Part shown: positions 13,144 to 61,745 of the stretch, one piece after another
Numbering within the stretch: position 1 is the stretch's first letter
Layout: each line of letters opens with the position of its first letter
NCBI RefSeq assembly: GCF_020745735.1
Contig: NC_083406.1
Span: 45,444,255-45,508,254 of the forward strand
DNA: 64,000 nucleotides
From: Hemiscyllium ocellatum
Lineage: Eukaryota
Reading direction: 5' to 3'
Translations under genes and position numbers: made by a program
The notes under the pieces: model-generated
Database searches by the model: none
What the model was told of the DNA's origin: nothing
Seen by the model: the letters and a program-made list of their open reading frames with translations, nothing else

Positions 13144-14163
13144 AATTCCCAGGTAGAGAAAACCTTTTTGTGACCATCGAAAGGAATCTGTGTTCCATCC
13201 TCTAACTCCCACCAGTCTCCATGTGGGTATGGCTTGCGACTTGGTAAAGTTTATCCTGCATCTCGAAAAGCTGCCAAATAATTTAATTTTTTGTATTAGC
13301 CGGGGTATGGACTTTTCTGGGTTAGCCAGAAACAAAAGCACATCATCAGCATAAAAAGCAATTTTATGCTCCTCTATTCCTACCTTTGGTGCCACTATCT
13401 CTTCTGGATGGCCTCCGCCAACAGCTCAATTATCAATGCAAATAGCAGTGGTGAGAGAGGACACCCCTGTTGGCTACGTCTCCCAACACTAAAATGATCT
13501 GATTTAACATCATTTATGATAATTGCCCCTTGGGATTGTTATACAGCACTGCCACCCACCTAGTGAAGGCCCCCTGCTCCCCGCCCATGATCAAAACAGT
13601 CTAGAACACCAAAGAGATACAACCACTCCACCCAATCAAACACCTTTTCTGCATCCAGGGAGACCACCAAGCCTGGAATCAATCTCTACTGACATACTTG
13701 CACTATGTTCAGTGCTGTCCTGATATTATTGGAAGAGCTACGGTGCTTAATAAAAACCTGTCTGGTCTTCTTTCATAATTACGGGCAGTACCTTTTCCAA
13801 CCTTAGGGCCAGCACGCTTGTTAACATTTTGAAGTCTACGTTCAACAACAAGATATATCTATACGAGGTGCAATCCTCGGGGTCTTTCCCTTTCTTTAAC
13901 ATGAGGGTGATATTGGCCTCCCTAAGGGAGGCAGGAGAGGGGAGGCAGTCCTGGCTAAATGAGTGACTATATATCCCCAGAAATGGCCCAGCCAAATGTT
14001 TACAAACTCCTTGTAAAACTCACTTGGGAGATGCTTTGCCACTTTGGAGCTGCGTTACTGCCTCTTGACCTCTTGTATTGTCAGGGGTGCATTTAAAAGG
14101 TAGCCCTGCTCTGAGTTTATACCGGGGAGGTCCAGGTCCTTGAAAAAGGATTCCATTCTCACT

Positions 14164-14569: not shown

Positions 14570-17170
14570 CATAGAACATAGAACATAGAACAATACAGCA
14601 CAGAACAGGCCCTTTGGCCCACGATGTTGTACCGAACATTTGTCTTAGCTTAAGCAGCTATCCATGTACCTATCCAATTGCCGCTTAAAGGTCACCAATG
14701 ATTCTGACTCTGCCACTCTCACAGGCAGCGCATTCCATGCCCCCACCACTCTCTGGGTAAAGAACCTACCCCTGACATCCCCCCTATACCTTCCACCCTT
14801 CACCTTAAATTTATGTACCCTTATCACACTCTGTTGTACCCAGGGAAAAAAGTTTCTGACTGTCTACTCTATCTATTCCCCTGATCATCTTATAAACCTC
14901 TATAAAGTCACCCCTCATCCTTCGGCCGTTCCAATGAGAAAAGGCCTAGCACTCTCAAGCTATCCTCATACGACCTATTCTCCATTCCAGGCAACATCCC
15001 GGTAAATCTCCTCTGCACCCTCTCCAAAGCTTCCACATCTTTCCTAAAATGAGGCAATCAGAACTGTACACAGTACTCCAAATGTGGCCTTACCAAGGTA
15101 CTATATAGCTGCAAAATCATTTCACGACTCTTGAATTCAATTCCTCTGCTAATGAACGCTAATACACCATAGGCCTTCTTACAAGCTCTATCCACCTGAG
15201 TGGCAACTTTCAAAGATCTATGAACATAGACCCCAAGGTCCCTCTGCTCCTCCACCTTACTAAGAACCCTACCGTTAACCCTGTAGTCCATATTCTTATT
15301 GGTCCTTCCAAAATGGACAACCTCACACTTGACAGGGTTGAACTCCATCTGCCACTCCTCAGCCCAGCTCTGCATCATATTTAAGTCCCTTTGTAGCCGA
15401 CAACACCCTCCTCACTATCCACAACTCCACCAATATTCGTATCATCTGCAAATTTACTGATCCACCCTTCGATTCCCTCTTCCAAGTTATTAATAAAAAT
15501 TACAAACAGCAGTGGACCCAGAACTGATCCCTGCGGAACTCCACTTGTAACTGGGCTCCAGGCTGAATATTTACCATCTACCACTACTCCCTGACTTCGA
15601 CTGGTTAGCCAGTTCTCTAGGAGAAAGTGAGGTCTGCAGATGCTGGAGATCAGAGCTGAAAATGTGTTGCTGGAAAAGCGCAGCAGGTCAGGCAGCATCC
15701 AAGGAACAGGAAATTCGACGTTTCGGGCATTCCTGATGAAGGGCTTATGCCCGAAACGTCAAATTTCCTGTTCCTTGGATGCTGCCTGACCTGCTGTGCT
15801 TTTCCAGCAACACATTTTTAGCCAGTTCTCCATCCAACTGGCCAAACTTCCGACTATCCCATGCCTCCTGACTTTCCACATGAGCCAACCATGGAGAACC
15901 TTATCAAATGCCTCATTAAAATCCATGTACACTACATCCACTGCTCTATCCTCATCCACATGTTTGGTCACCTCCTCAAAGATTTCAATAAGACAAATCC
16001 GTGCTGGCTGTCCCTAATTAGGAAGTGTTTTTCCAGATACTCATAAAGCCTATCCCTCAGTACTCTTTCCATTACTTTGCCTACCACCGAAGTAAGACTA
16101 ACTGGCCTGTAATTCCTGGGGTTATCCCTATTCCCTTTTTTGAACAGGGGCACAGCATTCACCACTCTCCAGTCCCCTGGTACCACCCCCATTGACAGTG
16201 AAGACGAAAAAATCATTGCCAACGGTTCTGCAATTTCTTCTCTTGCTTCCCACATAATCCTAGGGTATATCCTGTCAGGCCCGGGGGACTTGTCTATCCT
16301 CAAGTTTTTCAAAATGCCCAACACATCTTCCTTCCTAACAAGTATCTCCTCTAGCTTACCAGTCCGTTTCATACTATCCTCTTCAACAATACGGTCCCTC
16401 TCATTTGTAAATACTGAAGAAAAGTACTCATTCAAGACTCAATACACAGTCTCAATACATATCTCTTCCGACTCAATACACAGTCTCCCACTACTGTCCT
16501 TGATCGGACTTACCCTCGTTCTCGTCATTCTCATGTTTCTCACATACGCATAAAAGGCCTTGGTGTTATCCTTGATCCTACCCGCCAAAGATTTTTCATG
16601 CCCTCTCTTAGCTCTCCTAATCCCTTTCTTCAGCTCCCTCCTGGCTATCCTGTATCCCTCCAACGTTCTGTCTGAACCTTGTTTCCTCAACCTTGTGTAA
16701 GCCTCCTTCTTCCTCCTTACAAGACATTCAACCTCCCTTGTCAACCAATGTTCCCACACACGACCATCTCTTTCCTGCCTGACAGGTACATACATATCAA
16801 GGACACGTCGTATTTGTTCCTTGAAAAAGTTCCACATTTCAACGACATCCTTCCCTGACAGCCTGTGCTCCCAATTTATGCTCCTCAGATCCTGTCTTGC
16901 AGCATCGTATTTACCCTTCCCCCAGTTGTAAAACCTGTCCTGTTGCATGCACCTATTTCTCTCCATAACCAAGGTGAAAGTCACAGAATTATGGTCACCA
17001 TCACCAAAATGCTCACCCACTAACAAGCCCATCATTTGTCCCGGTTCGTTACCAAGTACCAAATCCAATATGGCCTGCCCTCTGGTCGGACAATCTACAT
17101 ACTGAGTTCGAAAAGCTTCCTGGACACACTGCACAAACACCGCTAATCTACTTGATCGAAAGAGCTTCCA
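14570..17170 (-). mobile_element. Relatively young 5'-truncated CR1 (HER1-like) LINE ORF2 inserted in L1
   Basis: (catagaa)3 tail. ORFs with [55 protein letters not shown] and LVRPHLEYCVQF. Confidence 0.95.
15618..15817. mobile_element. Fold-back Penelope-type terminal fragment with intact hammerhead core
   Basis: Inverted arms ~15659-15729 / 15747-15819. CTGATGA-AGGGC-TTAT-GCCC-GAAAC at 15733-15757. 13-bp TSD ttagccagttctc (15605-15617 / 15818-15830). Confidence 0.85.
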
Positions 17171-20564: not shown

Positions 20565-20720
20565 AGTCATAGAGTGTTGGAGATGTACAGCATGGAAACA
20601 GACCCTTTGGTCCAACTCGTCCATGCCGACGAGATATCCCAACCCAATCTAGTCCCACTTGCCAGCACCCGGCCCATATTCCTCCAAACCCTTCCTATTT
20701 ATATCCCCGTTCAGATGTCC
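20565..20720 (-). mobile_element. CR1 3' terminal fragment
   Basis: 'agtcatagag...atgtacagcatggaaacagaccctttggtccaac' matches CR1 3' ends at 40455 and 60429. Confidence 0.7.
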
Positions 20721-21302: not shown

Positions 21303-21613
21303 GACTCATTACTAAGTCAATGACATTCATGTCAATCTATCAAAATAAATGTCTGGTTAAATGGTCGCCCAGTTCTGATGGAGTTTGTTAACAGTGGATT
21401 TGTGTCAGTGATTGCAGAACCAGTCTTTATGATAGTTTGCTCTGGAGTCCAACCCTTAAATTTGCATAAGAAATCAGCCAGGCTGGAACCTATACTGAGG
21501 AACCCCTACAGATAAAGGGTACAATTTCGGTTCCAGTCTCTAATGAGAAGGAGCTGGTTCAGTTCCACTAAATGAAGTAAAACGCTCGATCCCAGCTTGA
21601 TGGGGCACAATTG

Positions 21614-21925
21614 GGGCGGCACGATGGCACAGTGGTTAGCACTGTTGCCTCACAGCACTAGGGTCCCAGGTTTGATTCCAGCCTCAGTGACTGTCTGTGT
21701 GGAGTTTGCACATTCTCCTCGTGTCTGCATGGGTTTCCTCCGAGTGCTCCGGTTTCCTCCCACAGTCCAAAGATGAGCAGGTTAGGTGAATTGGCCATGT
21801 TAAATTGCCTGTAGTGTTAGGTACATTAGTCAGAGGGTAATGGGTCGGTGTGCGTTACTCTTCAGAGGGTTGGTGTGGACTGGTTGGCCGAAGGGCCTGT
21901 TTCTATACTGTATGTAATCTAATCT
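21614..21925 (+). mobile_element. HE1-type tRNA SINE
   Basis: ggcggcacgatggcacagtggttagcactg head, B-box-like ggtttgattcc, CR1-like tail ending taatctaatc. Confidence 0.9.
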
Positions 21926-22022
21926 TATCTTGATTGGCTCAATATGTTTCAATTAGAAAATGGCTGAATGAAATCCTAAGGAAATACCTGGAAGTTTTCA
22001 AGAAGGTCTAGGGACTATCATA

Positions 22023-22881
22023 TCTAGGGACTGGAAGTGGAGGTTGGGTTGGTGCGGGGTGTGGACCTGACGAGGGAGTCACGGAGGGAGTGGTCTTTTC
22101 GCAACCAACCCAACCTCCACTCTCGGCACCTTCCCCTGCAACCGCAAGAAATGCAAAACTTGCGCCCACATCTCCTCTCTTACTTCTCTCCAAGGCCCCA
22201 AGGGGTTCTTCCATATCCGCCACAAATTCACCTGCACCTCCACACACATTATCTATTGCATCCGCTGCACCCGATGTAGCCTCCTCTATATTGGGGAGAC
22301 AGGCCGCCTACTTGCGGAACGTTTCAGAGAACACCTCTGGGACACCTGGACCAACCAACCCAACCACCCCGTGGCTTAACACTTTAACTACCCCTACCAC
22401 TCCACCAAGGACAAGCAGGTACTTGGACTCCTCCATCGCCAGACCATAACAACATGACAGTTGGAGGAAGAGCGCCTCATCTTCTGCCTGGGAACTCTCC
22501 AACCACAAGGGATGAACTCAGATTTCTCCAGTTTCCTCATTTCCCCTCTCCCCACCTTGTCTCAGTCGAATCCCTCGAACTCAGCACCACCTTCCTAACC
22601 TGCAATCTTCTTCCTGACCTGTCTGCCCCCACCCCACTCCAGCCTATCATCCTCACCTTGACCTCCTTCTACCTATCACATCTCCATTGCCCCTCCCCCA
22701 AGACCCTCCTCCCTATCTTTTATCTTAGCCTGCTGGACATACTTCCCTCATTCCTGAAGAAGGGCGTATGCCCAAAACATCAAATTTCCTGTTCCTTGGA
22801 TGCTCCTGACCTGCTGCGCTTTTCCAGTAACACATTTTCAGCTCTGATCTCCAGCATCTGCAGACCTCACTTTCTCCTCAA
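22023..22881 (+). mobile_element. Penelope-like element 3' part (GIY-YIG) with short inverted 5' piece
   Basis: GTFPCNRKKCKTCAH...FTCTSTHIIYCIRCTRCSLLYIGETGRLLAERFREH. 11-bp TSD ggactatcata (22012-22022 / 22882-22892). Confidence 0.9.
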
Positions 22882-23242
22882 GGACTATCATAGGAGCAAA
22901 GGTAACCTTACATGTTGACCAAGAAGCAATTTCATGATCCACCAAGGCCTTCCTGTGTCACTTGCTTTAAATGCAAAAGTATAGGCAGACATCAGGAGGC
23001 TGGGAAGTGAAGGAATCATCAAACCAGTAGTTTTTGGAATGGACAACATTGGTTGTACCAATTGTGAAGCCCAATGGGTCAGTTCGCCTTTGTTGGTATT
23101 TTAACCAAACAGTAAACTGCTTCCCATAGCTGGATAAATACACATACGGGACATATGCAATACTGGCTGGGGTGCGGTGGGAGTGGGGGGATGATTGTCT
23201 TTCATGAAGCTGGACATGAGCCATGTGAGTAATTGCAATTAC

Positions 23243-23664: not shown

Positions 23665-23962
23665 TTAGATTACTTACAGTGTGGAAACAGGCCCTTCGAT
23701 CCAACAAGTCCACACCGACCCGCCGAAGCACAACCCACCTAGACCCATTCCCCTACACCTAACACTGCGGGCAATTTAGCATGGCAAATTCACCTAACCT
23801 GCACGTTTTTGGACTGTGGGAGGAAACCGGAGCACCCAGAGGAAACCCATGCAGACATGGGGAGAATGTGCAAACTCCACACAGATAGTTGCCTGAGGCA
23901 GGAATTGAACCCAGTTTTCTGGTGCTGTGAGGCAGCAGTGCTAACCACTGTGCCATGTGCAC
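23665..23962 (-). mobile_element. HE1-type tRNA SINE
   Basis: Reverse complement of the 26798-27131 copy. Confidence 0.9.
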
Positions 23963-26401: not shown

Positions 26402-26797
26402 GTGTCCAGCCCCCATACACCCCTGCAGGGAAATGTTGACCAACTGCCAGAGGAGATGCTGCAAATGCGGCTAGATAGGTCGTTATATCGGGGAGTGCAG
26501 GGAGCCCACCCACAAGCATAGGAAGCAAACCACAAATATCCTACCATGCCACCTAACGGAGCCATGAGAAAAGCAGTGATAACTTAGGTAAGGGATGCCA
26601 GAGACCCTTCTAAACAATATCCCCAGTCAGACATAGGGCCTCACAGAAATGGGAATGTGATGCTAAATGGGATAGCATAAGGTGCACCGTGGTTGAAGGT
26701 GAGGTCAGGGGCCATCACATTGAGCTCCTAAGGGACACCAGGGGTTCTTGCACAACCCTGAACTATCCTGAGATATCAATAGATTCTAACATAGATT

Positions 26798-27131
26798 GGG
26801 GCGGCACGGTGGCACAGTGGTTAGCACTGCTGCCTCACAGCGCCAGGGACCTGGGTTCAATTCCCACCTCAGGCGACTGACTGTGTGGAGTTTGCACGTT
26901 CTCCCCGTGTCTGCGTGGGTTTCCTCCGGGTGCTCCGGTTTCCTCCCACAGTCCAAAGATGTGCGGGTCAGGTGAATTGGCCCTGCTAAATTGCCCGTAG
27001 TGTTAGGTAAGGGGTATATGTAGGGGTATGGGTGGGTTGCGCTTCGGCGGGTCGGTGTGGACTTGTTGGGCCGAAGGGCCTGTTTCCACACTGTAAGTAA
27101 TCTAATCTAATGTAAGTAATCTAATCTAATC
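26798..27131 (+). mobile_element. HE1-type tRNA SINE, young copy, inserted in retroviral protease
   Basis: CpG-rich; A-box TGGCACAGTGG, B-box GGTTCAATTCC; tail 'tgtaagtaatctaatctaa' duplicated in tandem. Confidence 0.95.
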
Positions 27132-28206
27132 AAAACACCTGCAAAATGCAGACTTACGTGGAACTTACAAAAAGGGATGGAAACCAACCCCTTAAGAATT
27201 ACACCGGGGAAGACTGCTTGCCTTCACTCATACTATTTGACCTAGACCCAGAGGTGGAACACATCTGGGCTTCGATTTCATTCAGAAATGCAATCTATCA
27301 TTTGACCCCATGAACTGCTGTGTATGCAGATGCCCGATACAGATGAAGCCCTGATTGCTGAGAAAGATATGTCAAAATCTGTTGCTGATGTCAAGCAAGG
27401 TGAAACATTTGTTTTCCGGGGCTTGTTTCATAATGGATTCAGTCACTACCACTGGTACGGTGATGGGTGTTTTTTGTAAATCTCCCGGTAGTCATTCGTC
27501 AGCCTCCAAGAACCTTCTGATTTTTGAACTGGCCAGATTGGGGAATCGTTGGTGGAGGCTACTGGGTGCAGGACTCTCTGTTTAGGAGGCTATTTATGAC
27601 CTTGGCAATCTCACCTTCAGCCTTCTTGGGGAAACCCGTGTTCCTTCTGAGGTTTCAGATCAGGACGGTCTATCACTACTGCCCCCGTCATTTTACCACA
27701 GTCTTGTCTGTGATTTGCGAAGGCTTAAGGATGTCTCACAAAAATCCCTTGTGCCTCTGGATCACCAGTTATTTCCACAAGCTTAAACCACAATTCTCCC
27801 AGACTGCACATTCTGTCAACATATTTCCCTGTGGAGGCTTCCATTGGAGCCTTGTCCTTATCAGGCATTTGTATCCTAAAACGGGCCCTGGCAAAGGCTC
27901 CTACACTACAGGTACCAGACCTGGAACTCCCATTTGCACCAGAAGTATTTACTACAGATGCTACTCTCACAGTTGTACTCTTACAGGAGCACCACAGGAG
28001 ACTTGGACTATGGGGGTTTATGGCTCCCAACTCCTATCCCCAGTGGAAAAAGGTTTCTCAGCATATCAGAAACACTTCCTGACAATTTTATGAGCAGTTT
28101 GCAAGGCTGCACTAATTGGACTCAAACCTCTAAATATCTCACCGAGCATAACCATATACAACTACTGCTGAACAGCCGAATTAAAGATGACCAAACATCA
28201 TAGTGG

Positions 28207-28395
28207 ATCAAGCAGTATCCAAGGAGCAGGAGAATTGATGTTTAAGGCATGAGCCCTTCTTCAGGAATCCTGAAGAAGGGCTCATGCCCAAAAAGTCAAT
28301 TCTCCTGCTCCTTGGATGCTGCCTGACCTGCTGCGCTTTTCCAGCAACACATTTTTAGCTCTGATCTCCAGCATCTACAGTCCTCACTTTCTCCT
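28207..28395. mobile_element. Fold-back Penelope-type terminal fragment
   Basis: Inverted arms around 'cttcttcaggaatcctgaagaag'; degenerate TSD caaac(a/c)tcata(g/a)tgg. Confidence 0.75.
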
Positions 28396-29309
28396 CAAAC
28401 CTCATAATGGGCTGGACTCTGATACCTCAGGGCCTTTACGTTATGTTGAAATGTACCAAAGTGTCCACCTTCCTTGCTGACAACTTGAGCTTCGGAGGGG
28501 AACCTCATGAGTGTCAGGTTGTGTCATCAAATGATTCCAAGGGAAAATACATCCCAGAACAAAATGGGGGAGAGCTCAAGGGAATCGGAAAAGCCAATAC
28601 ACACAGTCTTTTGAAATTTATGTGGATAGGTCCTTTCTGGTGAAACACAGGAATAGAAAATCAGCATGTGAAATGTATGTGGAGAATCACTGAGGTGAGT
28701 TCCTGGTGGGATTAGCATTAAAACTCCTCAACAAAATGAGCATCCAAACTGCTGAACTAGCCATCCAGATAAACTTCCTGCACTGGCAAACAAATATTCA
28801 GATAACATGTATGTCTGTGACAGTTTAACTGACTTCCTGCACGTTTGGAAGACAGAGGTTTTGTGTCAGTGGATGGAAACCTCTACTATCAGCATTCCTG
28901 ATAAAATACATATTCCAAAGTGCCCAAGAACAGGAGCATAGGATCATTAAAGTTAGGGCACACCATAAATCTTCCCCGGCTGGGAATGTGAAAGCAGATG
29001 AATTTGTCAAGGAGAACATCTGAAAGAGATAGCTATGGTCGCCCCCATTCTCCAGCACCCCCTCCCCCCACCCCTCCCCCACCGATTCTCAAGAAGGTGA
29101 ACACTATCGTTGTGAACCAAACTAAGATCGATGACCTTAAACAAGCTCAGGGCAGTGACAATGACCTAAAATAAAGGAAGGGGCAGATGCTGTATCCTAA
29201 GACAAATCGAAGGACAAACTAATACTAAAACAAGGACACATCTGTAAAGATGGGCAACACATGGGACTATATCAATGTCATGATGTCCACAGCAACAGAG
29301 ATTAGAATT

Positions 29310-30048
29310 AATCATTCATATGTACAAGTCTATACATTGACCATCCAGGTATTTTGCTGAGGTGTCAGCGCACCCTGATTACTGAGTGGGCCCCCTGTTC
29401 TTCTTAGGCAGGCAGACCTTACATGGTGGCTTTCCCCACTGTGCTTTGGTGGCAGCTGCCTCAAACTTCAGCGTGTCCCTCAGCACGTAGTCCTACACTT
29501 TGGAATGTGCCAGTCTGCAACACTCAGTTGGGGTCAACTCCTTCAGCTGGAAGATCAACAGGTTTCGGACAGACCAAGGAACGTCTTTGACCAAGTTGAT
29601 GATCTTCCAGGCACAGTTAATGTTTGTCTCTGTATGTGCCCTGGGGAACAGACCGTACAGCACGGAGTCCCGAATCACAGAGCTGCTTGGAATGAACCTC
29701 GACAAACACCACTGCATTCGTCTCCAGACTTCTTCTGCAGAAGGAGGTATGTGACAGTCTCGTCCCCTCCACAGTTGCTTTGGGGGCAACATGCGGTGTG
29801 GCAGAGAGTCCAGGCATGTATAAAGGATCTCATAGGCAGAGCCCTTCTCACCACCAGCCAAGCCATGTCTTGGTGCTTGGTGTAAAGTTCTGGTGATGAG
29901 GCATTCTGCCAAATTACTTTGACAGTCTGCCCAGGGAACCACTCCACAAGATCCGTTTTCTCCTTTTCCCAAAGGGCCTCAAGGACACTATATGCTGACC
30001 ACTTCCTGATGGACTTGTGGTCAAAGGTGTTTTTCTTCATAAATTTTG
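29310..30048 (-). mobile_element. Tx1-clade LINE 3' fragment (ORF2 C-terminal zinc-binding region)
   Basis: IWQNASSPEL..KHQDMAWLVVRRALP...CPQSNCGGDETVTYLL and VLYGLFP..HTETNINCAWKIINLVKD. Splits the retroviral integrase HH/CC motif. Confidence 0.85.
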
Positions 30049-30616
30049 TAACTGTATAACCTGTGCCCAAAATAATTGCGAAAGGTATGCCTGGGGAATA
30101 AGGGGGAACTGAGGCAGCCCCGACCTGTAGCATGCCTGGACAAATATTTAGCAAATGGTTGGAGGTTTTCCTTACCTGAACCAACACCGTTAATGTCACC
30201 GCAACCATTCTAAACCACCAATTTTCTCCCGGTGGGGACTCCCTGGCAGCATAGAGTTAGACCAAGGCACTGATTTCACCACCCTAGAAATGCAAGATGT
30301 GATTAATTTATTTGGCTTTGACCAATGGTTCCACACCACATACCATTCCCAATCCAGTGGGATAATGGAAAGAGTGAATCACACCTTAAAGGTAATCTAA
30401 CAGAACAGCACCACTTATAACATTGTAACACCTGTTGTGCTGATGTTGGTGATGACTGGAAGGTACGTGATGGAGATTGATCCACTCCTGAGCGGGATGT
30501 CTCGACTGTCCAAAAAGCAATGGCTGTTTGAATGGGTCAGAAAAAAAAAGAGATAAAGCAAAATTTACTTCAATAGCGAAGTCAACCTCACAGAATTTGA
30601 AATAGGACAATAAGTC

Positions 30617-31707
30617 TTTTTTTTATTTCAAAAATATACTTTATTTGTAAAATAATCATAAAATAATTTGATGGTCTGTACATTAGGTAATGCCATACAT
30701 ATGTCAACATTTACATACACAGCTCAGAATTATCGTTATTATATACAGGTCTGTGCATTTCTTGCTCATATGCCCATATATTGAGCTGAGGCATCAGCAG
30801 AGCCTAAATGACTGCGTGGGCCCCCTGTTCTTCTTTAGACAGGCAGATGTTAAACGGTGGTCTTTCCCCACCGCGCCTTGGCGGCAGCTGCCCCAAGCTT
30901 CAGCGCGTCCCTCAACACATAGTCCTGGACCTTGGAATGTGCTAGTCTGCAACACTCAGTCGGGGTCAACTCCTTCAGCTGGAAGATCAACAGGTTTCAG
31001 ACCGCCCAGAGAGCGTCCTTCACCGAGTTGATGATCCTCCAGGCACAGTTGATGTTCGTCTCGGTGCGCGTCCCGGGGAACAGACCGTAGAGCATGGAGT
31101 CCCGCATAGTTTCCATGCTATTTTGTGGTGCCTTGCTGGTCAAAAATATACTTTATTCATAAAATATTAGATACACTGTACATTTGGTAATGCCATACAT
31201 ATGTCAACATTTACATACACAGCTCAGAATTTTCATTATTACATACAGATCTGTGCACTTCTCACTCACATATTGAGCTAAGGCTTCAGCAGAGCCCAAA
31301 TGACTGCAGGGCTTGCCCCAGGGAAATCCTGCAGGCAGTACATGTCCACTGCTGCAAACCCACAGCACTCCAGCAAGACCTTCTTCACAAACACCGTCCG
31401 ATCGACCGGTGTGTGCTCCTCCACCTTCTTCACAGTCACCCTGACTGTGTTGCGAATGCCTTGGCCAAGGCTGCGAACGGCTGCTGAGGCAATGGCTCTG
31501 AGATTGGCTGGTCCCTGAATTGGCGTTAGGCCGAAGCCAGCATGAAGATCCACCAATAGTAGGTCAGCACAACCAAATGATCCTCCATCGTCCAATCACG
31601 ATTACGATCCAGCGATGATCTCTCCACTAGCTCTGGTGACTCGCAACTCGACACCGTTCTTATCTGTCCTGATAAGAACAGACAGTTGATCTTAGCCAAA
31701 AGGCCGC
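30617..31707 (-). mobile_element. Non-autonomous Tx1/Keno-like element with U2 snRNA-derived 5' head
   Basis: Perfect 18-bp TSD gaaataggacaataagtc (30599-30616 / 31708-31725). Poly(A) end at 30617. U2-identical blocks at 31686-31706 and 31669-31682. ORF1 N-terminus GQGIRNTVRVTV...DRTVFVKKVLLECCGF...YCLQDFPG. Two copies of the 3' UTR. Confidence 0.85.
31669..31706 (-). ncRNA. U2 snRNA 5' fragment (not a functional U2 gene)
   Basis: CGGCCTTTTGGCTAAGATCAA and TCTGTTCTTATCAG are identical to vertebrate U2 nt ~10-30 and ~39-52. The intervening branch-point-pairing GTAGTA is absent and the rest of U2 is missing. Confidence 0.9.
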
Positions 31708-34274
31708 GAAATAGGACAATAAGTCATGCTCCAAGTTTTCCAGCCAGGAATATTTCTGTCCCTCAGCTACTCAGGACTTCACTTTGTGATGGATAAGATG
31801 AGTTCCTCAGTTTACATTGTGTTGGGTAGACTCCAGGAAGACCAGATCATACCACATTAACTAGATGAAAGTGTATGGTTCCCAAAATATAAACCATCAT
31901 TTTCATACATCCCTGGAAGAGTTCAAGACACCAACCCAAAGACTTAGGCCCGCACAGTTAACTCCATCCTCATTGGTCGAGGAACTGGTTGCCAAAAGCC
32001 AACCTGTAGTCCATCAGAAATTGAGACCAATAGTCATCCAGCAACATATTAAGGAATTTAAATAGCACCGGAACCCACAGAGGCATTTGGTCTGGAAATC
32101 CAATGCGGCAGCTGTGGAAGAATTGGTTTCCAGCAGCCAGACCCCACCACGAGAGTTACAATTCTACTATTAGAACCATATAGGCGCCACCACCCATGAT
32201 TGGTTCCATTTTCGGAACTGGCAGCCAACCCCACTCCCACATTCCTGGTATAACTTCCTTGTTTCTTTTCCAGATAATTCATTTTCACAAATACAATTTT
32301 CTTCCTGACTGGAAGACAATCTCTTTATCTCATGTCTTTCGAATTGTTGCACAATCTGATAATACTCTATAAAATTGGTGCAAGACCCTGTATGCACTCC
32401 TACCACCTGGGTTAGGTTCAGGCTGAGAGCTATAACTGAAGGAAAGAGAAAAACAAATCAACTATTAGTAATGGGACATAACCGGGGAAGGGAGGGAACC
32501 TGGGAGCATCGAATCAGTAACAGATACCACTTTAATCATTTTCCCTAAGAATGTATGCACAGGCAAGGGACATTGCAGCAATCACCACAACATAACCCTG
32601 TTGATCACAATCCAACCTTATGAAGTACTAGATTATCCAAGATAAATGTGGATCGCCCCACTGGTTACTGTGAAAACAGTGTTCTACGAGTACACCCCAA
32701 CAAAACAGTGATGTTCGGGTCGAACAAATGGTATACAAAAGATACCTGGCAGCTTGAACTATTGTTCAAATCTATGTTGAGCAGGAGAGAACAGAGGAGG
32801 TTGCTCACATTGCAGGTGCATAGGGATACCTAAAATATGAATCAACCATTTTCCAAAAGCATTTTCTGATACTGCACCGACTGATAATGACCACACTGTT
32901 CTGTGTTTGCATTTATTTGCTTGTATTCATTTTTGAATTTTCAACTGCTGTGTAGATTATAATTTTTAAATAGTTGAGGCTGTCAGCCTGAGACCCAAGT
33001 GCTGCTCAGTTGGAGAACAAAGTTGAAGTTATGTGATCCCATTTTGCTGACCCTAATTTGAATCAAGAGGAAGGACTGTGGCTGGATAATGCAGGGCCTG
33101 AACAACTAGGCCTGAGACCAGAATGGACAACCTTTGAGCAGCCAGGCCTGATAAGAGTTCCAAGGCATCTGTGCAGGTCAAAGGCAGACAAAGATAAGCC
33201 TGGACTTGCCATAGAAAATGTATTGCAGTATAGCGCCTAGAGTTCCCAACAATGTACACCAAGTTTAGCTCCAGAGTCCTCCATACATGACATCGGGAGC
33301 CCAATGAACACCATGCTTTGACCTGGAAGATTGATTGGCTGAGTGACAGAGAACATTCTAGAAGGATGCAGCAGGGGGAGGTAAAACTGGCAGTCATTCC
33401 ATCAGTGAAGACCCAATCTGGCCCAGCAGTGCAGTTACAACTACCTGGAAAGAGAGAAGATAACCATATGCAAGATCAACCCTTGCCAAGTTCATCAGAG
33501 CTGACTACACAGACTGGCCAAGTTTAAATACAGAGGTAGTACATGGTCCTAATCTGGCAGCCAGTGGTCATTGAGATAAAGATTGCAACAAAAATATACC
33601 ATTGCAATTGGGAGAATAATTAATGTATGAATTGGGTGATGTAAAATGAAAGAACAGGGTTTTCGACAATAGACAGCCAAATGGTCCTTTTTGTGTCTTA
33701 GTGAATTTTGTGTATAAAATTATGTTGAATTGCAAGTTGAATCTTTCCCTTTCATTCATCTCAGAAGTACAGCACCTGAGTGAAATGTGTTTATGGAGAA
33801 ACTAGTTGAAGTGTCCAAAGCATTGACGTCAGAGGCCATTCAGCCCTTTGTGCCTGTGCTGGAAAAGCAGGGGGTGGTTTGGACACTAATTGGGACAGGT
33901 AATGCCCCAGTCAGGTGGTATGTCAGGAAAAAAGGCTATGGATTTGGATTTGAAGAATGATGGATCTAGGGATTGGAAAGCAGGAAGGTTCTGGGTAATG
34001 ATTATGAACAGATTGAGGGCAGGGGTAATCTTTTGCTTACTTTTGGATCTCAGCTGCAGTAATGAGGAATAATTGTTCAGATCTTGCTTAGTCAAACTGT
34101 TCCAGTAAAGTTACAAAACTGGCATCAATCTGGTGACATAAAAATTTGTCTAAATTTGCCCTGTCCAACAACATGAGAGAAATCCCTTCTGGCAAAATGC
34201 TAATTCAGGATGCTCCCAGTCAACAGCAAAGTCATGGACGGTGCCAGCAGCAGCATTATCAAGTGGAACTTATT

Positions 34275-34452: not shown

Positions 34453-34556
34453 TTAGCAGTAATCTGTTCACCAAACTACAGCTTGGGTTCCACGAGGCCC
34501 AACTGGTTCTAGGCTCTATACATTTTGATCCAAATATTGACAATATAGTTGGATTG

Positions 34557-34893
34557 GGGTGGCACGGTGGCTCAGTGATTAGCACTGCTGCCCCACAGTG
34601 CCAGGGACCGGAGTTTGATTTCCACCTCGGGTGACTGTCTGTGTGGAGTTTGCACATTCTCCCTGTGTCTGTGTGGGTTTCCTCTGGGTGCATTGGTTTC
34701 CTTCCAAAATCCAAAGATGTGCAGGTTAGGTAAATTGGCCATGCTAAATTGCCCATTGTGTTCAGGGGTGTGTAAGTTAGGTGCATTAGTCAGGGGAAAA
34801 TGTAGAATTATGGATGAGTTACTCTTTGGAGGATTGGTGTGGACTTGTTGGGTGAAAGGGTCTGTTTCCCCACTGTAGGAATTCTATTCTATG
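34557..34893 (+). mobile_element. HE1-type tRNA SINE
   Basis: ggtggcacggtggctcagtgattagcactgctg head; tail ending attctattctatg. Confidence 0.9.
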
Positions 34894-45732: not shown

Positions 45733-46062
45733 GGGTGGCATGGTGGCTTAGTGGTTAGCACTACTGCCTCACAGCACGAGGGTCCCAGGTTTGATTCTAG
45801 CCTCGGGCATCTGTCTATGTGGAGTTTCCACATTCTCCCTGTGTCTGCGTGGATTTCGTCCGGGTGTTCCGGTTTCTTCTCACAGTCCAAAGATGTGTGG
45901 GTTAGGTGAATTGACCATGCCAAATTGCCCGTAGTATTAGGTACATTAGTCACAGGGAAATGAGTCTGGGTTGGTTACTCTTCAGAGTAGCAGCAGGGTG
46001 TGGACCTGTTGGGCCAAAGGTCCTGTTTCCACACTGTAGTGAATCTAATCTAATCTAATCTA
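45733..46062 (+). mobile_element. HE1-type tRNA SINE
   Basis: Standard head; (taatc)3 tail. Confidence 0.9.
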
Positions 46063-46689: not shown

Positions 46690-49100
46690 GATTGATTACA
46701 TCATTGCCCATTGAGTGTGTGCTAAGATGTTGGTGCCAAATGCCCAAGATAGAGGTCGGAGAACAAACAGTGAGCTGGAGTTGCCAGGTAACCACGCAAA
46801 ATTTTGTCATGGAAATATCATCATCTTGTTTCTATCTGGCAGATGGAAGAACGAGAATCTGCATATTGATGAGGTGAGATTAGGTAATAATAAGATGCTA
46901 ATACATGCAAATAGGCCTGTTCTTATACACATGTGTAATTGTTCAACACTTGGTTGGAAAATAGGAAGTTGTGCTCTTAATGTTGAGAGGCTCTTCACTG
47001 AATATGCCATTTGATTTTCCCAACTTTCACCCAATAGCCAGGCAGGGCCAGGAGAGGTGTAACAGTGCCAATGGACTCCTAACCTTGTATGAGGAGAAAA
47101 TCATGGTCCTTGCAAGAGAACACTGGAACTGTTCTTGTGGAGATATCCTGTCAACTGACTAAGTTCTATTCTTTAATCCACTGCAACTCTTATAGTAACA
47201 CCATTTCTAACCACTGGCCATGATACCTTCTTTCTTTTGTGTCAGCAGGTGTCAGTGGGATGTTCACAACCCCTAAAGAGAAACTGGTTGCTCCAACAGA
47301 AAGGACTCTTCCACCTCTGAGCACGTGAATTCTCAGAGGAAATATTGGTAAGACTGCCTCTCCCACCCTCTGCCAGTTCAGGTACTGGCAGCTTGGTGGG
47401 AACATCAAGTGTCGAATAGGTGGCAGCATCAGCTGGTGAGCAGCTGAGGACAAAAACTTCATACCTGGATAAGGAAGAAATGCTGAGCACCTCTGGCATT
47501 CAGAGGACTTGAATGCACATGCTCAAACCCAGGACTGTGTGATGTTAGCAACTGAGGTCTTGGTCCAAGCACAGGAGCAACAGACAAGTATGTGGGAGGT
47601 GTGGGAGAAATCTTGATTATGTTTAAACAAAATGTCAGCAGTTGAATGTATATTGTACAAGGTACTTGAGTAGAAACTGTGTAGCTGCAGAAAGCATGGG
47701 CAGAATGCTCCAACAAAAGGCAGGACTGACCACTAAAATGGCAAGAACCCTGGTGCTTGAATAAGATGAATGGGTGAAAGTGAGAGGATGGGAGCAGGTA
47801 TAAAAGTATAAATATGTAAGGCCCGTGTGGGCAGTTAGAATCAGAAGGAAGGTGGTCGAGATCGACTGCTCATGTAATTTTTTTTTAAGTTTGACCAATA
47901 AATAATTATAAAAAACGGACCATCCCTGATGGCCTTGTGTGTGTTTCATTATGAAAACTTTGGACCAAACAGAGAGAATGGCTCTCTTAGCTCAGAAGCT
48001 ACAGGAGCACAGCTGGAGAGCAAGCAACTGATTGGCAGTCTGCAAGACCAGGTCCAACACTCTTATTGTCTGCTGGGTGTGTGCACAAACCCTGCACTCC
48101 CTTCCCCTAGCTATTGGTCCTCTTGACCAAAGAGATGGTGAAAGGGGTTCAGGGAGACGTGACCTCAGCCCAGGTACCCCTTCTTTACCAGGCGATGGAA
48201 GGGGTGGGGGGTCCACTGTCAAGCAAGCTCCCTCCTCCCACACTGTGAAACTTGGACTACAATGAAATGGAGTGAAAAGGACTGAAACAAGATATCCTTT
48301 TGAAAGCACTTGGTGGTAGGAGTGCTGTTGCAATGTACACTAATACTTCAATTTCTATAAATGTTGAGTGTTACACTAAATCTGTTTGTTTGAGTCTCTG
48401 TCTAGACCCAAATGTAACTGTAGCACCATGATGTAGTACATCATGTCGATGCAGCATGTGCAATGTCTTAACTGAGAGCTTACTGCAGCATGTATAAGCA
48501 AGATAAACATGATTTGGAGATGCCGGTGTTGGACTGGGGTGTACACAGTTAAAAATCACACAACACCAGATTATAGTCCAACAGGTTTAATTGGAAGCAC
48601 ACTAGCTTTCGGAGTGACACTCCTTCAGCAGGACAATCACCTGATGAAGGAGCGTCGCTCCGAAAACTAATGTGCTTCCAATTAAACCTGTTGGACTATA
48701 ACCTGGTGTTGTGTGATTTTTAAAAAAGATAAACATGGCCTTGTATAGGGGAATACTGTTGGCTACTTAGCCTCCATATTAACCTCCCTCTTAGCCAAAT
48801 AATATTATTCTTTCACTGGCTTCAGTGTGCAAAAGTGTTGATCTTGCAACGTCTGGAGCAGGGCAATATGCAGCATACAGGGAACCAATGCTTTAACATC
48901 ACAAGGGATTGGGAGTCCGTTGTTTCTGATGGAAATACTTCAGATCTGTGGGTCTTGTAGCTTCTTCCCACACAAATTGTAATATTTACCCTGCCCACCA
49001 TGAACAGCAGATCTCCAATTTCTTGACAGCTGGCAAGTGAATCAGAAAAGTGGCATAATGTTCCTGAGAGATGGAAGTGACCAGATGTCAATAACCTTGG
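46690..49100. mobile_element. Very old PIF/Harbinger remnant: Myb/SANT-like gene (+, ~46700-48300) convergent with transposase C-terminus (-, ~48330-49100)
   Basis: LLTLYEEKIMVLARE...CSCGD (46971-47162) resembles Harbinger Myb-protein C-terminal segments; LVMLKHWFP (48822-49091) resembles the transposase LKxRF motif. Weak. Confidence 0.35.
48512..48725. mobile_element. Fold-back Penelope terminal fragment with intact hammerhead core
   Basis: Inverted arms ~48549-48632 / 48640-48723. CTGATGA-AGGAGC-GTC-GCTCC-GAAA at 48641-48665. 12-bp TSD aagataaacatg (48500-48511 / 48726-48737). Confidence 0.85.
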
Positions 49101-50671: not shown

Positions 50672-52868
50672 TGTTAAGAGGAAAGGTGCTGGAACAAGTG
50701 CACCAAGGGCACCCAAAGTAGGGCAAATGAAGGAGAAAATCAGGAGCTACTTTTGGTGGCCTCCAGATTGTGGAGAAAGTGGGATTACGTGAATCCTGCG
50801 TATTAATAAGGAAAATACCATTATCCTATCGTCCATGGGAAAGCCCTCAATCACCGTGGCAGCAGATTCAGGTTGATTTTGCTTGACCAATAGATGGATA
50901 GCTATTTCCAGTGGTTGTGGATGCCCACTCCAAGTGGTCTGAGGTGGTGGTCATAAAGTCAGAAACAATGATATGGGTGACCTTATAGAGGTTTATAAAA
51001 TCATGAGGGGCATAGATAGAATTAATAGTGAAGGTCTTTTTTTCTTAGGGTGGGGAGTGCAAAAATAGAGGACATAGGTTTAAGGTAAGAGGGGAAAAAT
51101 TTAGAAAGGACCTGAGGGGTAACATTTTCATGCAGGGGGTGGTTCATGTATGGAACGAGTTGCCAATAGAAGTGGTGGACTCAGATACAATTGCAACATT
51201 TAAAGTCATCTGGATGGGTATATGAATAAGAAGGTTTTAGAGGGATATTGAACAGTGGGAGGCACGGTGGCACAGTGATCAGCACTGCTGCCTCACAGCA
51301 CCAGAGACCCGGGTTCAATTCCCACCTCAGGCAACTGAGTGTGTGGAGTTTGCACATTCTCCCTGTGTCTGTGTGGGTTTCCTCTGGGTGCTCCGGTTTC
51401 CTCACACAGTCCAAAAATGTGCAGGTTAGATGAATTGACCATGCTAATTTGCCCATAGAGTTAGGTGAAGGAGTAAATGTTGGGGAATGGGTCTGGATGG
51501 GGTGCTCTTTGGAGGTTCAGTGTGGACTTATTGGGCTGAAGGGCCTGTTTCTACACTGTAAGTAATCTAATCTAAAAAAAATGCTGGTAAATGGGACTGG
51601 GATGTTTGTTTTGTGTAGATAAGTTGGACCGAAGGGTCTGTTTCCATTCTGTATGACTAATATAGGCCCATTGGATGAAATATTTGCCATTTTCAGGAAA
51701 CTTAAATAAGTCATGAGGGACAATGGTTCACAGTTTGTGATGCAAGAGTTTGAGGAGTACCTAGAAAAGCACAGAGTCAGACATTTGAGATCGGCTTCAT
51801 AAAACCCTGCAACAAACGGCCAGACGAGGAGATTTGTATAAACCCTGAAGCAGGCCTTAATGGCTTCACAAGGGGAGGGTGTGCTGGGATAGTGACTCAA
51901 CAAGTTATTCAGCATGAACAGGAATATGTCACACATGACAACCCAATGTTTGTATGCTTCCTTAATGTTTAGACATCAGCTGAAAACCACATTTGATTAA
52001 TTGCGGCTGGAAGAGCCTAGAGAAGTGATAGAGCGGAATCACGAAGGGCAGATGGGAGGGAACCTCACAGCCGAAGGTATTCTAAAGAGGAGAGAACATG
52101 TTGGTCTAGAATCATACATCTGGGGAAAAATGGATCCCAGAAGTGATGGTGGCTCAATCAGGACTATGTCATATACTGTACAGAATAGGGATGAACTGAT
52201 CTGGAGAAGACACATCGACCAACTGGTTGCTGTACCTCACCAACGGAGTGCAATCCCTCAGAAAACTAAGCCAGTTCAGATGGAACCAGAGGTGTTGACT
52301 GAGCCATGTGTCTCTGAGCCAGGGTTGGCCATACTCAGGAAGGAAATACCAGCAACTTTACAGGACAACAGCCAATCAGAAAGGAACATGTCACTGAACA
52401 ACAGGGGCTTCTGGAAGCCAGGGAGACTACACTTGAAAAGGTTCCTGAGACAAAGAGATGGTCTTCCAGAAACTGCCATTCCCCTGAGAGGCTGATCATG
52501 TTGATTCAGATTATGGATGGAACATCTTATATTAGGGAGGAATGGTTGTTCTTCCATGATTGTCATGCTTTTGTAAATATTCCTGACTATGTACATGTAT
52601 TGGCTACAATGCCTGTATATTATTTATAATTTTGTATATATGGTTATTAATGGGAGTTTTACAATAAAGGGGTGGGGGCATAAAGTATGTAGGTGGGGGC
52701 ACTACCCCTTTGACAGCTGGACAGGTGACCGAGAGGGGCAGAGCTGGGGTCCAATCTAGAACCGGTTATGGAGGTATAAGCATTGTCAATAAAGGATTTC
52801 TGTTCAGATTTGTCATTTGTCTACCTGATATATAATTCCTGATTCTAAAAGAAATACAGACATAACAG
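50672..52868 (+). mobile_element. Gypsy integrase/3' end remnant, interrupted by CR1 3' end (50975-51660) and HE1 SINE (51257-51573)
   Basis: PWQQIQVDFA*P..VVVDAHSKWSEV (50850-50950); DNGSQF..QEFEEYL...PATNGQTRRFV*TLK (51720-51850); SYTV...IWRRHIDQL (52001-52495). Confidence 0.8.
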
Positions 52869-54639: not shown

Positions 54640-56297
54640 GTCCTGTCGTGTTTAAGAAGGGTGGTAAGCACACGCCAGGGAACTATAGACCAGTGAGGTA
54701 AAAACAATGACTGCAGATGCTGGAAACCAGATTCTGGATTAGTGATGCTGGAAGAGCACAGCAGTTCAGGCAGCATCCAAAGTGCAGTGAAATCGACGTT
54801 TCGGGCAAAAGCCCTTCATCAGGAATTTTCCATGATGAAGGGCTTTTGCCTGAAACGTCGATTTCGCTGCACTTTGGATGCTGCCAGAACTGCTGTGCTC
54901 TTCCAGCACCACTAATCCAGACTATAGACCAGTGAGCCTGACATCAGTGGTGGGCAAGTTGTTGGAGGGAATCTCGAGGGACAGGATGTACATGTATTTG
55001 GAAAGGCAAGGACTGATTAGGAATCATCCACATGGTTTTATACGTAGGAAATCATGTCTCACAAACTTGATTGAGTTTACTGAGGAAGTAACAAAGAGGA
55101 TTGATGAGGGCAAAGCGGTGGACATAATCTATATGGACTTCCTAAGGCATTTGACAAGGTTCCCCATGGGGGACTGGTTAGCAAGGTTAGACCTCATGGA
55201 ATACAGAGAGAACTAGTCATTTGAATACAGAACTGGCTTGAAGGTAGAAGACAAAAGGTAGTTTTTCAGACTGGAGGCCTGTGACCAGTGGAGTGCCACA
55301 AGGATTGGTGCAGGGTTCACTACTTTTTGTCATTTATGTAAATGATTTGGATGTGAACTTAAGAAATATTGTTAGTAAATTTGTAAATGACATCAAAACT
55401 GCAGGTGTAGTGGACAGCGAAGAAGGTTACCTTGGATTACAACAGGATCTTGATCAGATGGGTGAATGGGCTGAGAAGTGGCAGATGGATTTTAATTTAG
55501 ATGTGCTGCACTTTGTGAAAGCAAATCTTAGCAGAACTTATACACTAAATGGTAAGGTCCTAGAAAGTGTTGCTCAACAAAGAGACTTTGGAGTGCAGGT
55601 TCATTGTTCCTTGAAAGTAGAGTTGCGGGTAGATAGGATGGTGAAGAAGGTGTTTTATATGCTGTCCTTCATTGGTCAGAGTATTGAGTACATGAGTTGG
55701 GAGGTCATATTGCGGCTGTAAGTGACACTGATTAGACAACTGTTGGAATATTGTGTGCAGTTCTGGTCTCCTACCTATTGGAAGGATGTTGTGAAACTTG
55801 AAAGGGTTCAGAAAAGATCAACAAGGCTGTTGCTAGGGCTGGAGGATTTGAGCTGTAGAGAGAGGTTGAATTGCCTCGGGCTGTTTTTCCTGGAGCTTTG
55901 GAGGCTGAGGGGTGAGCTCATAGAGGTTTATAAAATCATGAGGAGCATGGATAGGATAAATTGACAAGTTATTTTCCCTGGGGTGGGGGACTCCAGAACT
56001 AGAGGGCATAGATTTAGGGTGAGAGGGAAAAGATATAAAAGAGATCTAAGAGGCAACTTTTTCACGCAGAGGGTGGTATGTGTATGGAATGAGCTGCCAG
56101 AGGAAATGGTGGAGGCTGGTACAATTGCAACATTTAAAAGACACTTGGATGGGTATATGATAGGAAGGGTTTGGAGGGATATGAGCCAGGTGCTGGAATG
56201 TGGGACTAGATTGGGTTTGAATATCTGGTCAGCATGGAAAAGTTGGACCGAAAGATATGTTTCCATGCTGTACATCTCTATGACTCTGCGACTCTAT
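54640..56297 (+). mobile_element. 5'-truncated CR1 LINE (RT to 3' tail)
   Basis: NYRPVSLTSVVGK, SCLTNLIEF, GVPQG, LEYCVQFWSP, FFTQRVVCVWNELP; (gactctat)-type tail. Confidence 0.95.
54698..54920. mobile_element. Fold-back Penelope terminal fragment with hammerhead cores on both strands
   Basis: ~90-bp inverted arms; intact core on minus strand 54798-54822; 16-bp TSD actatagaccagtgag (54682-54697 / 54921-54936). Confidence 0.9.
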
Positions 56298-59929: not shown

Positions 59930-61745
59930 AGATTCAGTTAGGAAGGTAAATGCATTGATTGCATTCGTTTTGAGAGGGTTGGAATACAACATCAGGGATT
60001 GTACTACTGAGGCTATATAAGGCTCGCGTCAGACCACATTTGGAATATTAGGAGCAGTTTTGGGCCCTGTATCTATGAAAGAGGTTGATGAGAATGAGGA
60101 AGTTTATTGGAAGGGGTTGAGAGGAGGTTTATGAGAATGATTTTGGAAATGAAGAAATATCATATGAGGAGCAGCTAAGTAATTGGGGTTTGTTCTTGAT
60201 GAAGTTTAAATGGATGAGGAAGGATTCTGATGGAAATTTACTGAATACTGAAAGGCCTGAATAGAGTGGGCATGGAGAAGATGTTTTCATTAGTAGGAGA
60301 GATTAGATGCCAAGGGCACAACTTCAGAGTGAAGGGACAATCCTTTAAAACTGAGATGAGGAGGAATATCTTCAGCTAGAGGGTGGTGAATCTATGGAAC
60401 TCACTGCCACAAAAGGTTATGGAGGCTAAGTCATAGAGTCATAGAGATTAGATTAGATTACTTACAGTGTGGAAACAGGCCCTTCGGCCCAACAAGTCCA
60501 CACCGACCCGCCGAAGCGCAACCCACCCAAACCCTTACATCTACCCCTCACCTAACACTACGGGCAATTTAGCATGGCCAATTCACCTAACCCGCACATC
60601 TTTGGACTGTGGGAGGAAACCGGAGCACCCGGAGGAAACCCACGCAGACACGGGGAGAACGTGCAAACTCCACACACAGTCAGTCGCCTGAGTCGGGAAT
60701 TGAACCCGGGTCTCAAGCGCTGTGAGGCAGCAGTGCTAACCACTGTGCCACCGTGCCGCCCATGTACAGCATGGAAACTGACCAACCTGTCCATGCTGAC
60801 CAGATAGTCTAGACCCAATCTAGTCCCACCTGCCAGCATTCGGCCCATATCCCTCCAAACCCTTCCTATTCATATACCCATCCAAATGTCACTTATCTGT
60901 TGGAATTGTACCAGCCTCCACCACTTCCTCTGGCAGCTCATTCCATACAAGTACCACCCTCTGTGTGAAAAAGTTGCCCCTTAGGTCTCTTTTATATCTT
61001 TCCCCTTTCAACCTAAACCTATGCCCTCTAGTTCTGGACTCCCCGATCCCAGGGAAAAGACTTTGTCTATTTACCCTATCCATGCTCCTCATAATTTTGT
61101 AAACTCTATAAGGTCAGCTCTCAGCCTCCGACGCTCCAGGGAAAGCAGCTCCAGCCTGTTCAGCCTCACCCTGTAGCTCAAATCCTCCAACCCTGGCAAC
61201 ATCCTTGTAAATCTTTTCTGAACCCTTTCAAATTTCACAACATCTTTCTGCTAGGAAGGAGATCAGAATTGCATGCAATATTCCAACTGAGGCCTAACCA
61301 ATGTCCTGTACAGCCGCAACATGACCTCCCAACTCCTGTACTCAATACTCTGACCAATAAAAGGAAGCATACCAAACGCTTTCTTCACTATCCTATCTAC
61401 CTGTGACTCCATTTTCAAGGAGCTATGAACCTGCACTCCAAGGTCTCTTTGTTCAGCAACACTCCCTAGGACCTTACCATTGAGTGTATAAGTCCTGCCA
61501 AGATTTGCTTTCCCAAAATGCAGCACCTCGCATTTATCTGAATTAAACTCCATCTGCCACTTCTCAGCCCATTGACCCATCTGGTCAAAAGTCATTCAGC
61601 CAAAGACATAGGTTATTGATTATTAATGAATCAGGATTATGGGGAGAAGACAGGAGAATTGGGTTTAGAAACATATCAGCCATGATTGAGTGGTTGAGCA
61701 GACTCGATCGATTGAATGGCCTAATCCTACTCCAGAATTTTACGG
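59930..61745. mobile_element. Old CR1 3' part (+) interrupted by a younger CR1 3' part (-, 60429-61590)
   Basis: ORFs 61263-61595 and 60889-61092 carry CR1 RT C-terminal motifs; short aagtcat duplication at both junctions. Confidence 0.85.
60446..60761 (-). mobile_element. HE1-type tRNA SINE, young copy, inserted into a CR1 tail
   Basis: Near-identical reverse complement of 26798-27110; splits 'gtcatagag|atgtacagcatggaaac'. Confidence 0.95.

Follow-up and report, generated by a model that had tools for sequence, protein, structure and literature searches.

A U2-headed composite retroelement insertion in a decayed provirus of the shark Hemiscyllium ocellatum

The insert, its U2-derived head and its two modules

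The DNA considered here is a stretch of 64,000 nucleotides (nt) from Hemiscyllium ocellatum (NCBI RefSeq assembly GCF_020745735.1, contig NC_083406.1, positions 45,444,255 to 45,508,254 of the forward strand). It is referred to below as the window, and positions are counted from its first letter. Within the remnants of a provirus lies a retroelement insert on the minus strand, running from 31707 to 30617 (1,091 nt), whose 5' end carries sequence of U2 small nuclear RNA (snRNA). The insert is bounded by an 18-bp target-site duplication (TSD), with the 5' copy at 31708–31725 and the 3' copy at 30599–30616. Self-comparison of the window showed the two to be 100% identical (18/18), and they form one of the nine exact repeats of at least 18 nt spaced at most 3 kb apart. 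The last 3 nt of the 5' copy, read in the sense of the element, also match U2 nt 6–8, a possible microhomology.

The single TSD encloses, in order, module A, a 32-nt linker, module B and an A8 tail (30617–30624, minus strand) that closes the insert. Module A (568 nt) is made up of the U2 head, a hairpin, a 5' untranslated region (UTR), about 60 codons of open reading frame (ORF) 1 and a 3'UTR without poly(A); module B holds the 3'-terminal 85 ORF2 codons, another 3'UTR and the poly(A). An earlier interpretation made from the letters alone, called here the sequence-only reading, had described a 1,091-bp minus-strand unit with a poly(A) end, a perfect 18-bp TSD and a U2 piece inside it, all of which we could verify; because the U2 piece is within the TSD, it was delivered by the same insertion event. 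The same reading had ORF1 jumping straight to the 3'UTR, which is true of the first 568 nt, the rest being the linker, the ORF2 piece and the second 3'UTR. The copy appears to code for nothing functional, lacks a recognizable internal promoter and would depend on ORF1p and ORF2p supplied in trans.

U2 similarity is confined to the first ~38 nt of the insert, where, as the sequence-only reading had proposed, two blocks are identical to U2 (all positions minus strand). After one unmatched base (31707), block 1 (31686–31706, 21 nt) corresponds to U2 nt 10–30 and keeps the core of stem-loop I. Three nucleotides (31683–31685) then replace U2 nt 31–38, which the Rfam alignment renders as a substitution and a deletion of 5 nt, and block 2 (31669–31682, 14 nt) corresponds to U2 nt 39–52. 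The head is thus not an intact U2, with nt 1–9 absent and a break at nt 31–38; the segment mostly removed by this break is the branch-point-pairing region. Each block has a single occurrence in the window, where 2.7e-8 copies of block 1 and 7e-4 copies of block 2 would be expected by chance.

Positions 1–52 of the Rfam U2 model matched a 62-nt query at 34.4 bits (E 3.2e-6). The gathering score of 46 was not reached, and a scan of the whole window at that threshold returned no U2 match. Rfam gave no U2 signal in 31530–31668. The possibility that the entire 5'UTR is a diverged full-length U2 was rejected, as a global Rfam alignment over 176 nt reached only 24 bits vs 34.4 for the 5' 47 nt, with no U2 match in the remainder. 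Compared by eye, both blocks are identical to the human U2 row in the part of the PMC4640811 supplement consulted.

Block 2 is followed by an inverted copy of itself (31654–31664, minus strand), and the two would form an 11-bp RNA stem. This hairpin is more stable than expected (z -3.27; 2/200 shuffles), and perfect stems of 9 bp are found at 11 positions (7 distinct sites) in the 64,000 nt, compared with a mean of 3.6 in five shuffles. Native U2 stem IIa accounts for about four of these pairs, and the hairpin extends past it.

The 5'UTR of module A (31494–31653, minus strand) shows no U2 similarity and no transfer RNA (tRNA). Neither it nor the sequence upstream of the head gave a match to the patterns applied, the A and B boxes of RNA polymerase III (Pol III) in the former and an octamer or proximal sequence element (PSE) in the latter; these are weak negatives. 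A head derived from a tRNA or Pol III gene was rejected on the lack of any tRNA or Pol III box match. Six runs of 4–5 T lie inside the element. A 20-codon upstream ORF starting MEDHL (31526–31588, minus strand) is also present in this 5'UTR, probably by chance.

The ORF1 fragment (31314–31493, minus strand; 60 codons) matches the Pfam domain RBD_ZCCHC3_1st, a ZCCHC3-type RNA-binding domain, with an E value of 2.5e-8. Sixteen relatives were found at E values up to 0.001; seven with N-terminal matches were used and nine were left out, and the fragment aligns with the N-termini of all seven homologues fetched (7/7). The claim of a 5'UTR followed by about 60 codons of ORF1 therefore stands, except that the start codon is dead, reading ATT where the homologues have Met. 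The fragment adjoins 3'UTR copy A (31140–31313, minus strand; AATAAA at 31157) at a G-rich junction with possible microhomology, and this UTR lacks its last 3 nt and poly(A). Module A retains just the 5' and 3' ends of its long interspersed element (LINE), which makes it bipartite.

Behind the linker (31108–31139, minus strand), module B consists of the 85 ORF2 codons and their stop (30850–31107, with one internal stop) and 3'UTR copy B (30625–30849), both on the minus strand. The linker is not the TSD and is no more than 3/14 U2-like; its best match in the window is 12 nt long (E 0.07). Its last 11–12 nt resemble the end, read in reverse, of a repeat that is abundant in the window, seen at 20589, 40485, 56269 and 60768, a likeness that at a best E of 0.07 may be chance. 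As the linker differs from the TSD, two insertions at one site were rejected as the origin of A and B.

Module B shares 79/85 residues with an H. ocellatum protein (P0017). Of the six differences, three are of CpG type, two are sites where B has the state of the other shark homologues and one is private. The ratio of observed to expected CpG is 0.78 in B and 0.60 in A, compared with 0.24 for the window and 0.27–0.33 for the proviral flanks. From the high CpG ratio and the few private differences in B, we infer that the insertion is young. The two UTR copies agree at 155 of 173 aligned sites (18 mismatches; 89.6%), plus indels, and since this difference of about 10% exceeds what the young age of B would allow, A and B were probably separate templates. 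A duplication after insertion is likewise disfavored by the ~10% UTR divergence and was rejected on this reasoning.

The source LINE and its proviral target

Predicted proteins P0002 and P0025 carry an ORF1 start of the module A type together with an ORF2 of the module B type, and the two modules can therefore be assigned to one LINE group. The fragments and their homologues together describe a two-ORF element without long terminal repeats (a non-LTR element), with RNA-binding domains and CCHC knuckles in ORF1 and a reverse transcriptase (RT) and C-terminal zf-RVT in ORF2. This architecture alone does not separate Tx1 from other L1-group clades. We take the layout to be that of Tx1, a name that no search returned. 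An Atlas search with P0017 found only unnamed RT/zf-RVT clusters, and one with the ORF1 piece gave no usable match. The closest named ORF2 relatives come from four shark species. The earlier suggestion of a non-autonomous body is supported, and this body is a piece of a shark non-LTR element.

The insertion sits in the decayed remains of a retrovirus-type pol, which lies on the plus strand, antisense to the insert, with approximate limits of 27100–32000; it comprises an RT connection/RNase H-like region, a second RNase H and an integrase core. Its Pfam matches (E 0.0019, 0.0029 and, for rve, 0.028) are all under the curated cut-offs, and integrase structures in PDB match it with a best E of 1.8e-5. 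The RT-connection piece had 0 PDB matches, as did the right flank alone, which also had no Pfam match. The sequence-only reading had placed the insertion inside a retroviral integrase. The integrase core match does lie ~200 nt to the left of the TSD; with the right flank unmatched, placement in the C-terminal part of integrase is suggested by position and frame. Both TSD copies contain an in-frame stop, in a frame that is continuous across both sides, and so the provirus was probably already broken at this site before the insertion. Remnants of the provirus span about 27100–33000 on the plus strand; beyond 32470 they may include an env-like stretch, which had no Pfam match, and self-comparison of the window revealed no LTR pair around the provirus.

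The sequence-only reading was also right in placing the insertion outside any U2 gene. The 3' flank is proviral, and the remainder of U2 is matched at only 3/14 positions behind the 3' end of A and of B alike. With no U2-like sequence behind either end, this is not a Keno insertion (U2 nt 38/39 with the U2 remainder on the 3' side), and a U2-like target was rejected on the same 3/14 count.

The same LINE group is represented a second time by an older 3' fragment (29295–30050, minus strand), made up of the zf-RVT end of ORF2 and a partial 3'UTR. It is also antisense to the provirus, sits 550 nt from the insert between the His and Cys halves of an apparent integrase zinc-binding region, and is ~83% identical to module B, with a CpG ratio of 0.31–0.41. 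No TSD was found around it; its own 3' end is missing, and some proviral sequence is also gone. A search with this fragment returned 12 proteins, six of them named, and all the named ones were from sharks. The insert and the older fragment contain the sole copies of this 3'UTR in the 64 kb. Their positions hint at a preference of the LINE group for endogenous retroviruses, which two events are insufficient to show.

Origin of the composite

The explanation that we favor, with a probability of roughly 0.55, is a young composite Tx1-type insertion carrying a partly inherited U2 head. The TSD, the tail, the order of the modules and the U2 sequence within the TSD can be read directly off the insert. 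A single event of target-primed reverse transcription by a shark Tx1-type LINE would have placed a composite cDNA into the dead provirus, duplicating 18 bp. Synthesis would have begun on the poly(A) of module B, which may come from a recently active subfamily, and continued into module A, presumably an element from another subfamily that had undergone internal deletion. The two could have been joined by template jumping, or an A-linker-B tandem at the source locus could have been transcribed as one RNA.

Block 2 and the hairpin would be the inherited 5' end of the A lineage, with block 2 a relic of the target duplication made by a U2-targeting, Keno-related ancestor that later lost its U2 specificity, as in crocodilian Tx1-Mar. 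U2 nt 10–30 may belong to this inherited head or may be a later acquisition through template jumping to U2 snRNA, the route that Kojima describes for SINEU. That block 2 starts at U2 nt 39, the Keno/Utopia junction, supports a Keno-related inherited head. Moreover, a live co-transcript with U2 or a simple jump would yield continuous U2, which points to inheritance of at least block 2 with its hairpin.

Several observations weigh against this explanation and should be kept in mind. The head and the ORF1/UTR junction are each present as a single copy in the window. Plain read-through leaves the missing poly(A) of module A unexplained, although the absent tail fits template jumping or later trimming. 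Descent from Keno is putative, neither RT nor endonuclease being left in the copy, and the age estimate uses one module and one reference protein. The start at nt 39 could be chance, as it is defined to ±1 nt and falls in a single-stranded region where U2 frequently breaks; the first U2 block of SINEU-3 is also 32 bp long (PMC4494074). Finally, the hairpin is partly native stem IIa, the rest of it may have arisen in a single fold-back event, and the fold of the entire 5'UTR is not unusually stable (z -1.30; 22/200 shuffles).

Alternatively, the joins between module B, linker and module A, between ORF1 and the 3'UTR, and between the element and U2 might all stem from template jumps in a single event or from later deletion, with no U2-headed family behind them. 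We consider such a one-off chimera unlikely. It would agree with the single copy in the window, with the G-rich microhomology at the ORF1/UTR junction and with an insert that is already the product of several templates, and snRNA/LINE chimeras, triple ones included, are documented in vertebrates in the parts of PMC4476161 consulted. A jump onto cellular U2, however, predicts one continuous piece rather than two blocks and an extended hairpin, the mammalian template-switch chimeras covered in those parts involve mostly U6 or U6atac, and four or five rare events in a single insertion are unparsimonious. The whole 1,091-nt A-linker-B dimer could instead be the amplifying unit, after the fashion of dimeric SINEU-1D (dimeric SINEU is known; PMC4494074), since a single TSD surrounds both modules and the tail is found on B only, that of A having been lost as might happen in a left monomer. 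This is quite improbable: the near-intact ORF2 of B (79/85) leaves little time for the growth of a family, and the window holds no second copy.

Least probable of all, in our estimation, is a source copy at the Keno site of a U2 gene, transcribed from the U2 promoter and mobilized in trans. Co-transcription with the target gene is known for R2 (PMC4494074, discussion), and a head ending 14 nt beyond the Keno cut is what a Keno-type insertion with a TSD would have as its 5' flank. Read-through of A should, however, carry the U2 remainder, which is missing after either 3' end (3/14 each), and the head lacks nt 1–9 and is broken at nt 31–38. The loss and the break, with the head starting at nt 10 and 3 nt standing in for nt 31–38, weaken the proposal in the sequence-only reading of a master copy read continuously from U2 +1. 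Its other proposal, a fixed U2 head, fits better, and is of a kind already described for Tx1-11_Crp (PMC4494074).

It is possible, but doubtful, that module A represents a multi-copy family of bipartite Tx1 derivatives with U2 heads in sharks, one that favors proviral integrase regions and whose head is a fossil of the Keno junction. Besides the DNA search, which found one copy of the head and of the ORF1/UTR junction in the 64 kb, word-index protein searches gave 0/4 candidates for the frame spanning the junction, a protein-level proxy for the DNA junction, and 0/9 for the ORF1 piece. Pattern scans of GTDB (0/600 and 0/7 confirmed) concern a prokaryotic collection and are uninformative. Among the literature matches listed, judged by titles and the openings of abstracts, none described a shark element with a U2 head.

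With such a family, snRNA-headed retroposons would have arisen a second time, independently and outside crocodilians, and the LINE clades listed as sources of bipartite families would gain one more. The family's head, without the branch-point-pairing bases and with the rest locked in a hairpin, would be unable to take part in splicing, and a preference for proviral integrase would show in the two antisense insertions separated by 550 nt. Being young, the family would also allow a direct test of how a promoterless snRNA head is transcribed, a question left open by Kojima (2015). Should further copies share the head and the deletion junction, SINEU-like elements would extend from crocodilians to sharks, U2 heads would be tied to the loss of Keno-type targeting, and a young family would be at hand for mapping the start site and promoter. 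As a single copy, the insert is a well-preserved case of a known process, the addition of snRNA pieces to Tx1-type retroposons.

Other repeats were observed elsewhere in the window. At 13401–13929 (minus strand), a degraded RT fragment from another element of the L1 group is 32–39% identical to the shark homologues. About seven near-full copies of a 320-nt repeat resembling a short interspersed element (SINE), 73–96% alike, lie at 21610–21930, 23665–23960, 26795–27115, 34553–34891, 45733–46058, 51257–51575 and 60445–60762; we presume a resemblance to the shark HE1 SINE. Palindromic repeats of ~190 nt, similar to miniature inverted-repeat transposable elements, were found at 15644–15832, 22749–22886, 28208–28398 and 54709–54921, and also at 48549–48723, one of these copies being located within the proviral pol.

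Comparison with known U2-associated and bipartite elements

Behind insertions of Keno (Tx1 clade, U2-specific) and Utopia (restriction-like endonuclease, same site), U2 sequence resumes at nt 39, according to the parts of PMC4640811 and PMC6136364 consulted; the passages on U2 in PMC5322556 give no breakpoint position. Block 2 of the shark copy starts at this junction, within 1 nt. Unlike these elements, the shark copy is inserted outside U2, at a target that is 3/14 U2-like, and it has kept no endonuclease or RT.

The 5' addition of snRNA pieces is recurrent, and SINEU has been described as crocodilian only, with its transcription left open (PMC4494074). Like SINEU-1, -2 and -3, the shark insert has a U2-derived head, no Pol III boxes and a presumed mobilization by Tx1; its poly(A), an A8, belongs to the composite, module A alone having none. 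The insert also contains internal oligo-T runs, and its Pol III negative is a weak one. Discontinuous U2 is also a shared trait (SINEU-3 breaks after 32 bp), and a dimeric form exists in SINEU. The body, in contrast, is not the short, non-coding one of SINEU (<500 nt except for SINEU-1D): the insert measures 1,091 nt (module A, 568 nt) and retains ORF1 and ORF2 remnants. Whereas the body of SINEU-1 matches no LINE, that of the shark copy is recognizable as LINE 5'UTR, ORF1, ORF2 and 3'UTR.

A U2 head is also found on Tx1-11_Crp of crocodilians. This element is one of the Tx1-Mar families, which group with Keno and insert into Mariner copies; Tx1-8_Crp and Tx1-4_AMi, from the same Keno-related group, prefer LTR retrotransposons (PMC4494074). 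The shark copy is likewise a Tx1-type LINE with an snRNA head outside snRNA genes, and its target, a provirus, is comparable to the LTR-element targets. Unlike Tx1-11_Crp, it has an internal deletion and is joined to another fragment, and the two heads are likened by text description only.

With the bipartite LINEs Bov-A, RIME, NARTc and RTESINE, module A shares the joining of LINE 5' and 3' ends. The parts of PMC5786205 (2018) consulted list such ORF-absent families from RTE, Ingi, Vingi and R2 only, to which a Tx1 source would be an addition if module A is multi-copy. The snRNA/LINE template-switch chimeras in the consulted parts of PMC4476161 resemble the insert in having an snRNA piece 5' of a LINE within one TSD; those, however, are mostly U6 on 5'-truncated L1, whereas the shark copy has two U2 blocks in front of a complete LINE 5'UTR.

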